This document shows positions 5,746 through 9,089 of a stretch of DNA of 64,000 bases, piece after piece; within the stretch, counting starts at the first letter, position 1; each line of letters begins with the position of its first letter. The DNA comes from Candidatus Aenigmatarchaeota archaeon. GTDB taxonomy: Archaea > Aenigmatarchaeota > Aenigmatarchaeia > PWEA01. The notes under the pieces are model-generated. The model had not been told where the DNA came from. It worked only from the letters and a program-made list of their open reading frames with translations, and made no database searches. Both the position numbers and the translations under genes were made by a program. The DNA lies in NCBI GenBank assembly GCA_046539305.1, contig JBKHHE010000003.1, positions 1,369 to 65,368 of the forward strand. Reading direction: 5' to 3'.

Positions 5746-6675
5746 ATGAAGGGGGAGATATTGGTCACGGGGGGCGCAGGTTTTATAGGATCAAATCTGG
5801 TTGAAAACCTTGTCAAAGAAGGTCATGAAGTCACAGTTCTCGACAACCTTCACACAGGCTCAGTGGATAACCTTAAGGGTGTAGAGGAGAACGTAGATTT
5901 TTACGAGGGTCCCGTCGCCGATATATTTTCCTTGGAATGTGACCCCGGCAAGATATTTCACTTCGGTATACCCTCGAGCTCGCCGATGTACAAGGAGGAC
6001 CACATTTTGGTGGGACAGGCCATAAACGACTTTATCCGCGTCTTGGACTTCGCAAAAAAGAACGACTCTGACCTAGTCTTCGCATCTACGTCTTCTATGT
6101 ACGGCCCGAAGGAGCCTCCCCACAGAGAAAACATGGAATTCGAACCGTTTGACTACTACACTGAGGCGAGGCTTGAAATGGAAAGGCTGGCAGAGATGTA
6201 CAACAGTTTGTACGGGGTAAACTCGGTTGGTATGAGGTTCTTCTCCGTTTACGGGCCCAAGGAGAAGGCCAAGGAAAACTACGCAAATGTTATCTCTCAG
6301 TTCTGCTGGAGTATACTGCAGGATGAAAGACCCGTAATATACGGCGACGGAAGCCAGACAAGGGATTTTGTTTACGTTGAGGACGTCGTTGAGGCCGTCC
6401 TTCGCGCGGCCAGAAGGGCCGAATCCATTGGATATGAGGCAGTTAACGTGGGCAGGGGTGTGGAAACGTCTTTCAATGAAGTCGTCGAGATGCTTAACTC
6501 CACACTTGGAAAAAATATAGATCCCAAGCACATCGAGAACCCGATAGACAACTACGTCGAAAGAACCAAAGCCGACACAAGCAAGGCGGAGGAACTTCTA
6601 GATTTTGAACACAAGGTCCCAGTCGAAGAGGGCATAAATAAGACGGCTGAGCATTACCAGAAAGTTATGGATTAA
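5746..6675 (+). CDS. NAD-dependent sugar-nucleotide epimerase/dehydratase (SDR family)
   Basis: 'VTGGAGFIGSNLV' Rossmann motif and the catalytic 'YxxxK'-type region 'YTEARLEMERL'. About 310 aa, typical of GalE-like enzymes. Confidence 0.85.
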   Translation: MKGEILVTGGAGFIGSNLVENLVKEGHEVTVLDNLHTGSVDNLKGVEENVDFYEGPVADIFSLECDPGKIFHFGIPSSSPMYKEDHILVGQAINDFIRVLDFAKKNDSDLVFASTSSMYGPKEPPHRENMEFEPFDYYTEARLEMERLAEMYNSLYGVNSVGMRFFSVYGPKEKAKENYANVISQFCWSILQDERPVIYGDGSQTRDFVYVEDVVEAVLRAARRAESIGYEAVNVGRGVETSFNEVVEMLNSTLGKNIDPKHIENPIDNYVERTKADTSKAEELLDFEHKVPVEEGINKTAEHYQKVMD

Positions 6676-6680
6676 ATTTT

Positions 6681-9041
6681 TCATAGAAATTCAGTTATTA
6701 CTGGAAGGCTATCCCAGATCTCCTCCAGAGGTGTTTCTCTCTCAAATACTTGTCCTGTTATCTCTTCCTTGGTGCTGCTTCCTGCCTCTTGCCCCTTCAA
6801 TTCAGAAGTCCGGTTATTTTCATTCTGTACAAAAATTTCCCGGGTGAAATCCTTTCTCCCTTCCTCATTTTCAACTCTCACTCTGAATGAATAGTTTCCA
6901 GACTCAACGTCCTTCTGAATTCTGTTTACGAATTCTATGGATTTTTTCTCGTTTCCTTGGACCTCGACGAACTCTTCATTTCCCGTCCACCCACCCTCGT
7001 TGAGGACACTCCTGTTTTTGTAGACGTAGGACCTCACCGTGAAGTTAACAGGTTCATCACGCTCGTTCCAAATCAAGAAAAGCGACTTGAGCCTTCCTCC
7101 TGCCTTCACCTCTTCATCGTATTCGAAGAGCTCGAACCTCTCACCAACCCTTTCTTCCTCGGTCTCACCTTCGACTTCTTCATCTCCGCCTCCTTCAACA
7201 ACTTCGATTGTTTGAGTCAAGTCTTCTTCATCCCCCGCCCTTATTCGAAAGCTGTAGTTGCCTGCTTCTACCTCCTCCTTCAGAGTATTTTGGAAGGAGA
7301 GGACTTCCAGCCCTTCTTCATCTACCGTCGCTTCCTTTTCGTCGCCCGTCCACCCACCTTCATTCACAGGCGTGCTTCCATTATAGATGTAGGATCTGGC
7401 TGTGAATTTATTTTCCTCGCCACGGTTCCAGATAAGGAGCTCTGATTCTACATCTTCTCCTGGACGGACCTCTTCATCATATCCGACGAGTTCAAATTTA
7501 GTTCCTTTCTTCTCTCCATCCTTCTCGTCTTCCTCCTCGTCCCCACAGGCCGGCTTTCCCAGACTCCACCCTCCATCCTCAGGAGGAACTACGTAGGCCT
7601 TTCCCTCCTCGATGATATCCTTTACTCTTCCCTTGTCCAGTCCTTCGACCTCCGTTAGCTGGGACAGCGCTTTGAAATCATCACAGTTTTCTTTAATCCA
7701 CTCCGCTCTTTCCTCCCCGATATGTTTTATCTCCGTCAGCTCCTCCACACCGGCCTCGTTTATGTTTATCCTTTCTGTTTCGTCCTCGTTTTCCCTACCT
7801 TCCTCCTCATCCCCTTCTCCACCGTCATCCTCATCCTCCTTTCCACCCTTAACCACTAGAAGTTCTTTGACGTAGTGATTTTCTTCGTTTGAATCATTGC
7901 AGTATGTTTCTGTTAACTCCGCCCTTACCCAGAAGACCTCCCGTCCGGAGTCTATATTCGGAGTCCATTGCCTGTCAAGCTTGCAGTCGGAGTAATTTCC
8001 TGAGTGCTCATAGTCAACTTCTCCTTCCAGGTCCTCCATCCAGTAGTGTAATTCGTAGAGGTCTTCGTCGCCGACGCAGGCCTCTCCCTCAGAGTCATTT
8101 ACAACTATCTCGTATTCCAGAGTCTCGCCGTCCTCTAGGACATGTTCAACACCGGCCAGTTCCACGGAAAGATTGCATTCAGGGACTCCGTCTCCATTTC
8201 CTTCTTTCTCCTCAAGAACTACCTTTTCTTCTACATCACCGTCAATTATCTCTACTTCACCCTCAACGGTTTCGTAACCGTCTTTACTAATTTCGTAGTT
8301 ATACTCACCTGGCTCCAGGTCTTCAAAGGTAACTTTACCGTTTTTACCAGTTTTCTTTTCTCCAATGTTTTCTAGAATTACTGAGACACCCTCCAAAGCT
8401 CCATTGTCATCGCACTCGGTTACTATATTCAAGTTATATGTTTCCTCAATAGACTCTAATTCGTGCACAAACATGTCATCCCAGTAGATATGAGTACCGT
8501 CCTCGCCTTCATACTTGGATTCAACCTTTAACTGAACATACTCAGCTTCTTGGGGCGCTGTTTTATTGACTTTGTGTTCTTCCCATTCTTCAAGAACAGT
8601 GAAATCACGAAAGTTTTCAGTCGTATTAATTTCCTTTTTACTTTCATTGAGCCAAATGACCCTTAAAACTCTTCTAAAGCTTTCTGCAGGATCTTCTTCA
8701 TTCTTTCTTAAACTTGACCAACCGCCAAATTCATACTCTTCACCACCTTTGATCCCCACTGGATCGGATATAAAATACCGGCCGTATCTGCCTGTTATTC
8801 CGACTTGTTTAATTGACCAACTGCCGTTTCGTCTCCGTTCGTTTACACGTGTAGCTGCCACGTTTTCCGATTCGTTGAGAGGATTTGTGTCGTCCTGCTC
8901 CCATAAGGATGCATTTTCCTCATCACCGTCTTCAAAACCAGGATTGAGGAGAAGGTTTTCCGGTTCTGAATCGGCCTCCGCCGGAGAAGAGATGCAAATA
9001 AGCACAGCTACAAAGATTGCCGCTACCACACCCCTCTTCAT
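6681..9041 (-). CDS. Large acidic secreted multidomain protein: CBM4/9-like jelly roll, CarboxypepD_reg-like domain, Cys-containing domain, ComEA-type HhH domain and 2 tandem ~105-aa repeats
   Basis: Signal peptide 'MKRGVVAAIFVAVLICISSPAEA'. 'NLLLNPGFEDG...' resembles a CBM_4_9 N-terminus. 'ININEAGVEELTEIKHIGEERAEWI...VEGLDKGRVKDI' resembles ComEA HHH_3. Two clearly homologous C-terminal repeats are present. Confidence 0.7.
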   Translation of the reverse strand: MKRGVVAAIFVAVLICISSPAEADSEPENLLLNPGFEDGDEENASLWEQDDTNPLNESENVAATRVNERRRNGSWSIKQVGITGRYGRYFISDPVGIKGGEEYEFGGWSSLRKNEEDPAESFRRVLRVIWLNESKKEINTTENFRDFTVLEEWEEHKVNKTAPQEAEYVQLKVESKYEGEDGTHIYWDDMFVHELESIEETYNLNIVTECDDNGALEGVSVILENIGEKKTGKNGKVTFEDLEPGEYNYEISKDGYETVEGEVEIIDGDVEEKVVLEEKEGNGDGVPECNLSVELAGVEHVLEDGETLEYEIVVNDSEGEACVGDEDLYELHYWMEDLEGEVDYEHSGNYSDCKLDRQWTPNIDSGREVFWVRAELTETYCNDSNEENHYVKELLVVKGGKEDEDDGGEGDEEEGRENEDETERININEAGVEELTEIKHIGEERAEWIKENCDDFKALSQLTEVEGLDKGRVKDIIEEGKAYVVPPEDGGWSLGKPACGDEEEDEKDGEKKGTKFELVGYDEEVRPGEDVESELLIWNRGEENKFTARSYIYNGSTPVNEGGWTGDEKEATVDEEGLEVLSFQNTLKEEVEAGNYSFRIRAGDEEDLTQTIEVVEGGGDEEVEGETEEERVGERFELFEYDEEVKAGGRLKSLFLIWNERDEPVNFTVRSYVYKNRSVLNEGGWTGNEEFVEVQGNEKKSIEFVNRIQKDVESGNYSFRVRVENEEGRKDFTREIFVQNENNRTSELKGQEAGSSTKEEITGQVFERETPLEEIWDSLPVITEFL
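6822..7496 (-). repeat. Tandem duplication of a ~105-aa domain inside the 786-aa secreted protein (repeat 1 at 7191-7496, repeat 2 at 6822-7136)
   Basis: 'FELVGYDEEV..LLIWNRGEE..F.ARSYIYNGS..VNEGGWTGDE...GNYSFRIR' aligns with 'FELFEYDEEV..FLIWNERDE..FTVRSYVYKNRSVLNEGGWTGNE...GNYSFRVR'. Confidence 0.75.
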
Positions 9042-9089
9042 GGGTTTAGTTGGGTTGCCAAGAAATTTAAAATTTGGATTCGGGACGCT

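Follow-up and report, generated by a model that had tools for sequence, protein, structure and literature searches.

What is a DNA-binding module best known from bacterial competence doing in the middle of an exported archaeal protein? The question is raised by an open reading frame (ORF) of 786 residues at positions 6681–9041 of the minus strand, taken from the ORF list of a 64,000-nucleotide stretch of DNA from Candidatus Aenigmatarchaeota archaeon (assembly GCA_046539305.1, contig JBKHHE010000003.1, positions 1,369 to 65,368), hereafter the window. A first-pass annotation had read this ORF, from the letters alone, as a secreted archaeal protein with a ComEA-type helix-hairpin-helix (HhH) domain, and had suggested that it captures extracellular DNA (eDNA) for scavenging or uptake. 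Our profile searches and genome comparisons indicate that the segment is a genuine ComEA-type double HhH (HHH_3) module and that the protein carrying it is not itself a ComEA. The best explanation we can offer, and one to which we give an even chance, is that the protein is an exported surface receptor capturing DNA for nucleotide scavenging. The module lies as follows:

7590–7772, minus strand: ComEA-type double HhH module (HHH_3), residues 424–484, placed by profile searches.

The module comprises a first motif, HhH1 (LTEIKHIGEERAEWI), a second, HhH2 (LTEVEGLDKGRVKDI), and an end, EEGKAYV; the minus-strand translation of positions 7590–7769 reproduces exactly the 60 residues (425–484) on which the first-pass annotation was based. 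When the whole protein was searched with hmmscan, HHH_3 (PF12836) matched residues 422–472 at 24.7 bits (E 2.5e-5), slightly short of the gathering cut-off (27 bits), and a six-frame search of the genome scored the same copy at 29.4 bits, above the cut-off. Six other orthologous copies, recovered by six-frame search of eight genomes of the genus, reached 33–45 bits (best E 6.5e-12), and all four aligned family members matched HHH_3 (best E 2.6e-9). Taken alone, the window copy is borderline for HHH_3; judged through its family, it is secure. Profiles also recovered ComEA from the PDB. A four-member family profile ranked ComEA 8DFK first (E 9e-6), followed by EEPD1, ComEA 8DSS and the Thermus ComEA-related 2DUY, and a profile of 20 modules that included the window copy matched EEPD1 (2.9e-13), 2DUY (1.1e-12), 8DFK (1.2e-12) and 8DSS (1.5e-11). 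The HhH/ComEA identity first proposed is therefore upheld by profile searches at the level of the module, with HHH_3 at threshold in the window copy and above it in orthologues. A phmmer search of the PDB with the single module gave no significant match to ComEA (E 0.1), and the NCBIfam models of the ComEA family were not reached (TIGR01259, 23.7 against 152.35 bits; TIGR00426, 22.0 against 53.1 bits). Because these family cut-offs are not reached, the genome has no detectable ComEC or DprA and the architecture is different, we conclude from sequence that the protein is not a ComEA.

Within the family, the HhH module is the best-conserved part, with 57–60% identity compared with 17–39% for the N-terminal domain and 38–49% for the C-terminal repeat. 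Its invariant residues include I425, N428, A430, L435, I441, G442 and A446. HhH1 (IKHIGEERA) thus keeps its second glycine, G442, and A446 throughout, with H or N at the first glycine position across the family; the second hairpin reads G-L-G in most orthologues, and D-L-G and D-L-A in two. In Vibrio cholerae ComEA, K63 is the main DNA contact, K62 and K63 form a basic pair after hairpin 1, and a G-to-E change in that hairpin abolishes function (PMC3879209). V. cholerae G60, in hairpin 1, aligns with G442 and K63 aligns with R445. Every orthologue keeps a basic residue at or just past the K63 equivalent, either R at +3 or, in the orthologues with Ile at that position, K or R at +5 or +6.

The remainder of the protein follows the layout described at first: a signal peptide, a CBM_4_9-like domain (sub-threshold at 23 bits), a CarboxypepD_reg domain (35.1 bits), a four-cysteine insert and two C-terminal repeats around the module. 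From the amino to the carboxy terminus, these features are:

8970–9041, minus strand: Sec-type signal peptide, residues 1–24 (MKRG, then VVAAIFVAVLICISS, then PAEA before D), from hydrophobicity and conservation in orthologues.
8454–8969, minus strand: N-terminal jelly-roll, CBM_4_9-like domain (type 'NA'), residues 25–196, from a sub-threshold Pfam match.
8187–8444, minus strand: CarboxypepD_reg or PEGA-type immunoglobulin (Ig)-like domain, residues about 200–285, from PF13620 (35.1 bits against a cut-off of 32.3, E 1.8e-8).
7827–8186, minus strand: four-cysteine insert (C289, C322, C353, C381), residues 286–405, gapped in three other aligned family members.
7773–7826, minus strand: acidic linker rich in Glu and Asp, residues 406–423, read from the sequence.
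7545–7589, minus strand: conserved extension VPPEDGGWSLGKPAC, residues 485–499, ending in the invariant C499, from the family alignment.
7176–7511, minus strand: β-sandwich repeat 1 ('Crep'), residues 511–622, from a local hidden Markov model (HMM).
6816–7157, minus strand: β-sandwich repeat 2 ('Crep'), residues 629–742, from the local HMM.
6684–6764, minus strand: end of a sequon-rich linker and conserved amphipathic C-terminal peptide (ending in TGQVFERETPLEEIWDSLPVITEFL), residues 760–786, from the family alignment.

Several lines of evidence agree that the protein is exported, as had been claimed. The signal is its sole hydrophobic segment, with a 19-residue Kyte–Doolittle mean of 2.19 compared with a maximum of 0.54 elsewhere. 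A hydrophobic N-terminal signal is found in all ten family representatives listed (one of them called from an internal Met), and in all orthologues small residues at −3 and −1, forming AxA-type cleavage motifs, stand ahead of the conserved ENLL with which the first domain opens. The signal region of the 786-residue protein has neither a twin-arginine motif nor a lipobox. N-x-S/T sequons number 16, compared with 4.6 ± 2.0 in shuffled sequences, a 3.5-fold excess that has a similar counterpart in most orthologues and would be expected of an archaeal surface glycoprotein. The whole protein is strongly acidic, with an isoelectric point (pI) of 4.2 and a net charge of −126; acidity extends across the proteome, with a median pI of about 5.0 for ORFs of at least 200 residues.

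The domains flanking the module are less uniform. The head domain scores 23 bits for CBM_4_9 (PF02018; E 1.1e-4), below the 25.9-bit cut-off, and a related protein of the candidate phyla radiation (CPR), P0047, attains 26.1 bits; the likeness concerns the jelly-roll fold only. The AlphaFold2 (AF2) model of the head is all-β, with a predicted local distance difference test (pLDDT) score of 50–78, and its sequence has no match in the PDB. Only some orthologues have the CarboxypepD_reg domain, and the 120-residue four-cysteine insert is restricted to the window protein, with a poor AF2 model and no Pfam match over residues 286–405. All orthologues, by contrast with these optional parts, carry an acidic linker ahead of the HhH module. 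In the extension that follows it, P486, P487, W492, L494 and C499 are invariant in the family, and C453 is a possible disulphide partner of C499.

The Crep domain occurs in two copies here and in one in orthologues, and its AF2 models are all-β with pLDDT 50–68. Proteins built of 4–10 such repeats match Pfam NPCBM_assoc, CARDB and DUF11, so the two repeats described as novel are present as described and are linked to Ig domains of the CARDB and NPCBM_assoc type, which limits their novelty. Crep-type repeats also co-occur with lamin-tail domains in two proteins, P0043 and P0110. In a Foldseek search with the full-length, low-confidence model, the sole part to find matches was the C-terminal Ig pair, which resembled RbmA and transglutaminase; we treat this as a lead. 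The C-terminal peptide (…TG..F/Y…PLE.I…FL) is conserved in all ten family representatives; by hydrophobicity it is not a transmembrane helix, AF2 places a helix at residues 771–785, and it may serve to anchor or dock the protein at the cell surface. We rejected the idea that it is a sorting signal shared with other proteins, as an HMM of the peptide matched no other ORF in the genome.

What might an organism gain from holding DNA at its surface? The assembly (696 kb in 17 contigs, about 90% complete) describes a cell whose gene content fits nucleic-acid scavenging, and it is on this fit that we base the proposal of surface DNA capture. PurE was found in none of the eight genomes of the genus and PyrF in one of them, not including this one, with 14 of 14 control genomes positive for each. 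Near a contig end (contig C5, 51188–52126) lies the gene of an SNase (46 bits) that has a hydrophobic anchor at its N terminus and an OB-fold-like region at its C terminus; six of the eight genus genomes have an anchored SNase gene. The RuBisCO large subunit (306 bits) and AMP phosphorylase (TIGR03327, 538 bits, above the equivalog cut-off) are encoded side by side (contig C1, 129819–132423); both occur in all eight genus genomes and are adjacent here and in several others. RuBisCO-III and AMP phosphorylase form the core of the archaeal nucleotide-degradation (pentose bisphosphate) pathway. In the related Nanohaloarchaeota, nucleotide fermentation from eDNA has been proposed, with this pathway as its hallmark (PMC9563170). 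A weak second HHH_3 match beside the SNase gene of another genus genome (G007, contig C6, L038, 2–1183, plus strand) was set aside: it is the single-HhH tail of a radical-SAM-like protein that looks cytoplasmic and is unrelated. This tail accounts for the weak second HHH_3 matches in the genus.

From these observations we propose the following sequence of events. The Sec-exported, N-glycosylated and highly acidic protein would be displayed at the surface with its variable jelly-roll head distal, with or without Ig inserts, and would probably be retained there by the conserved amphipathic C-terminal peptide. Its HhH module would, like ComEA, bind extracellular double-stranded DNA irrespective of sequence, contacting the phosphate backbone through the hairpin amides (G442) and the basic R445. 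DNA held in this way could be cut by the organism's own anchored SNase. The products would meet the needs of a cell without de novo synthesis of purines and pyrimidines, and would feed the RuBisCO-III/AMP-phosphorylase pathway. The head may also attach the cell to a surface that carries glycans, whether of a host or of a matrix.

Within this proposal, the identities of the domains, the export signals, the pattern of conservation and the genome context are what the analysis shows, whereas binding of DNA, retention at the surface and a link with the nuclease are inferred. A number of observations weigh against it. The AF2 models reach a pLDDT of 44 for the full protein (from a four-sequence alignment) and 46 for the 83-residue module; they place four to five helices in the right positions of the module at pLDDT below 50, which does not amount to confirmation at the level of the fold, and a Foldseek search with the module was non-significant, with ComEA 8DSS first at E 2.2. 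The HhH2 of the window copy (VEGLDKGRV) has D469 in place of the second glycine, giving G-L-D rather than G-h-G, and the equivalent of V. cholerae K62 is E444, so that one basic residue of the pair is lost. The module is acidic (net charge −9, pI 4.5). HHH_3 also includes PsbU, an extracytoplasmic protein that does not bind DNA and that appears among the weaker matches to related modules. Finally, the metabolic argument is circumstantial, a supply of nucleotides from a host fitting equally well, and we identified no transporter for DNA or nucleotides.

How the gene varies between genomes bears on a second explanation. The module profile found one copy in seven of the eight genus genomes and none in 53 other genomes of the class; the eighth (G007, contig C1 end, L043, 2744–3436, plus strand) has the gene, cut by the contig end after the head domain, so the true count is eight of eight and the protein is confined to one genus. 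Across the genus the gene sits constantly between secF/secD and acs, and its neighbours are 63–84% identical between species, compared with 36–44%, over part of the length only, for the surface protein. The head is swapped between species, with an NA or an NB jelly-roll and with or without CarboxypepD_reg or Flg_new_2. In a sister genus (G008), the syntenic gene downstream of acs (contig C9, L044, 3–926, minus strand) encodes a signal peptide, a lamin-tail domain (55.5 bits) where the jelly-roll and HhH stand here, an acidic linker and β-rich regions before it is cut off by the contig end; the Crep HMM detected no repeat in this incomplete protein, and we claim only the lamin-tail domain there.

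Swapped heads on a conserved chassis and fast evolution at a fixed locus are typical of host-facing surface proteins, and they suggest that the protein might instead be an adhesin or matrix tether, fixing a small cell to a host or biofilm, with a head that recognises glycans and an HhH module that binds matrix eDNA as a structural anchor and not as food. The resemblance of the C-terminal Ig pair to the biofilm scaffold RbmA, seen with the low-confidence model, points the same way, as does the typically episymbiotic life of DPANN archaea (PMC9563170). Glycan binding by the head is nevertheless without support, given its sub-threshold CBM_4_9 score and the absence of a PDB sequence match, and the part that selection has held most constant is the HhH module and not the head. 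We consider this explanation unlikely in its own right; it overlaps with DNA capture for scavenging, and the two do not exclude each other.

The degenerate hairpins raise a different doubt. The window copy (G-L-D) and two orthologues (D-L-G, D-L-A) depart from the consensus in the second hairpin, the first glycine of the first hairpin is H or N family-wide, and the module carries its net charge of −9, all of which would be expected if the HhH module had ceased to bind DNA and served as a compact helical spacer or protein–protein unit. PsbU, the 12-kDa extrinsic protein of photosystem II (PF06514), offers a precedent in the same Pfam family: like the present module it is an extracytoplasmic double HhH, with a weak profile match to the module subtype, and it binds protein instead of DNA, a caution that the fold alone does not prove DNA binding. 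Yet the family never departs from G442, A446 and the INxA cap, every orthologue has a basic residue at or near the K63 equivalent, and genuine ComEA proteins, together with the HhH tails of MBL-fold hydrolases, are the nearest relatives. The acidity is shared by the proteome and would be expected of a halophile of the salt-in type. Backbone amides and bound monovalent cations can mediate the contact of HhH hairpins with phosphates, as in polymerase β, and a contact of this kind would suit multimolar salt. Loss of DNA binding is, on balance, distinctly improbable.

That the protein is a true competence receptor, passing intact DNA to pilus-driven import for transformation as ComEA does, is very improbable: the genome does encode two to three ATPases of type IV filaments (T2SSE), and DPANN archaea have been proposed to import DNA by means of pili (PMC7414124, PMC9563170), but ComEC (PF03772) has no match in the approximately 90% complete genome (10 of 14 control genomes positive), DprA (PF02481) has none either, the gene lies away from the pilus genes, among secDF, an epimerase gene and acs, and TIGR01259 stays at 23.7 bits against a cut-off of 152. 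As ComEC and DprA are both missing, bacterial-type competence is not supported. Of the two fates suggested at the outset for captured DNA, scavenging thus accords with the genome (PurE and PyrF, SNase, RuBisCO-III and AMP phosphorylase) and a bacterial-type uptake machine does not; similarly, of the import genes named there, type-IV-filament ATPases are present and ComEC is not.

Where did such a module come from? A profile search of 1.84 billion representative proteins returned 3034 matches, and the best of those outside the family have an N-terminal anchor followed by 2–7 tandem copies of the same module subtype, with the consensus 'IEINSA..EL..I.GIG...A..I...RPFCSL..L..V.GIG..T...IK.EG.AYV.PPE.C'. 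Some tandem copies share the 'I.HIGE.RAE' variant of the window module and are 50–52% identical to it. In a census of the 150 best matches with local HMMs, 76 were tandem-HhH-only proteins, 26 had at least one HhH module followed by a C-terminal NA or NB jelly-roll and about 11 belonged to the present family, a sample biased towards two-domain proteins because the query held both domains. The pairing recurs at the level of sequence. The window head (NA) shares 34% identity with the domain at the C terminus of P0017, which has three HhH modules (E 1e-24), and a similar match, at 30% identity, links the NB head of P0005 with the tail of P0015 (E 2e-24). Where source names of relatives were available, they were CPR bacteria (Paceibacterota, Nealsonbacteria) or carried JGI labels such as 'competence ComEA-like'.

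Searches with tblastn added a match in Saccharibacteria, an Oceanobacillus ComEA with 46–49% identity over about 55 residues and, at 52% identity, the HhH tail of an MBL-fold hydrolase in a Spirochaetaceae metagenome-assembled genome (MAG) from the same sediment. Lamin-tail domains and a PLD-type domain recur among the relatives of the module. P0011, P0014–P0018 and P0020 are uncharacterised, mostly CPR-type proteins with 4–7 tandem ComEA-like modules. By subfamily, the modules have cysteine pairs (RPFC…PPxxC, or QGCAYV with an upstream C) that suggest disulphide-stapled extracellular DNA-binding arrays.

The CPR tandem-HhH proteins (MDD5606607.1 of Ca. Paceibacterota, which is P0020, together with P0047 and P0056) therefore resemble the present family in their module subtype, the 'EGxAYV.PP..C' ending, module identity of up to 50–52%, NA or NB jelly-roll partners at 30–34% identity and an N-terminal anchor or signal. 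They differ in having 2–7 tandem modules, a C-terminal jelly-roll and a lysine-rich composition, and are uncharacterised, whereas the present family has a single module, an N-terminal jelly-roll, CARDB-like repeats, the special C-terminal peptide and a strongly acidic composition. We suggest, as a less likely possibility, that the HhH module and jelly-roll form a portable extracellular DNA-capture cassette common to both radiations of ultra-small symbionts, CPR and DPANN, and probably spread by horizontal transfer. In this genus the cassette would be the front end of a nucleic-acid-eating lifestyle, leading from the receptor through the anchored SNase to nucleoside monophosphates, RuBisCO-III/AMP phosphorylase and acetate, and the sister genus would use a lamin-tail on the same chassis at the same locus.

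The archaeal setting of the gene, which had been read from the letters, agrees with the titles under which NCBI holds the orthologous contigs ('Candidatus Aenigmatarchaeota archaeon T1Sed10_…/B1Sed10_…', 'Nanobdellati archaeon'); the source organisms are DPANN MAGs from hypersaline soda-lake sediments. It is also supported by a conserved element upstream of the start codon:

9063–9074, minus strand: TATA-box-like promoter element AATTTTAAATTT, at −33 to −22 relative to the ATG.

A TATA-like box stands at the same distance in all five further orthologous loci examined, in one of them as the variant TTATAAAAGTTT. This conservation indicates that the surface-protein gene has its own promoter, and the position of the box implies a leaderless or very-short-leader transcript. 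In this genome only, a gene for an NAD-dependent epimerase/dehydratase lies between secD and the surface-protein gene (5746–6675, plus strand), convergent with the latter across a 5-nucleotide gap.

How does the protein compare with systems already described? With ComEA (PF12836; structures 2DUY, 8DFK and 8DSS; V. cholerae, PMC3879209) it shares a double HhH module that is extracytoplasmic behind an N-terminal signal and that would act most like the DNA-binding domain of ComEA. The module retains the INxA cap, the glycine of hairpin 1 and the invariant Ala, together with one basic residue (R445) of the K62/K63 pair. In ComEA, however, the module forms the C terminus of a protein of 100–200 residues, whereas here it lies in the middle of a predicted five-domain glycoprotein of 786. 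Compared with Gram-positive ComEA, three residues are missing between the two HhH motifs, a shortening also seen in Thermus 2DUY. The hairpin sequences are H-I-G in the first motif and G-L-D in the second, an 'EGxAYVxPP…C' extension is added, and the host is archaeal and halophilic, with no ComEC or DprA as partner.

Another parallel is Hvo_1477 of Haloferax volcanii, a surface lipoprotein with an SNase and a lamin-tail domain that is needed for growth on eDNA and for which the DNA-binding factor is not known (PMC3929857). Both proteins are archaeal and come from halophiles, and the present one, like Hvo_1477, would be a surface-exposed component of eDNA use. The window's genome has its own anchored SNase of similar role, and a lamin-tail domain appears at the syntenic locus of the sister genus. 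Hvo_1477 differs in being an enzyme without an HhH module, whereas the present protein has no recognisable catalytic domain. In the literature we searched, we found no description of this family, nor of a jelly-roll combined with a single HhH module, CARDB-like repeats and a special tail. What is familiar here is the HHH_3/ComEA DNA-binding module, and what appears to be new is the protein architecture around it.

How archaea bind and process eDNA is barely understood, with Hvo_1477 as the sole genetically supported component. To our knowledge, no DNA-binding receptor has been identified for archaeal eDNA use. Feeding on eDNA by nucleotide-dependent DPANN and CPR organisms has so far been proposed from metabolic genes alone, and the protein described here provides a concrete candidate for that missing receptor, small enough to be expressible, in a lineage that also has the nuclease and the nucleotide-catabolic pathway. 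It also reveals that one module subtype and its partner jelly-roll are common to ultra-small organisms on both sides of the bacterial–archaeal divide. Were the cassette interpretation to prove true, it would identify the DNA-binding factor missing from archaeal eDNA use and give prokaryotic lamin-tail domains a DNA-related role. And should the module prove able to bind DNA in multimolar salt at high pH, it would offer a useful model of salt-resistant, non-electrostatic DNA recognition.

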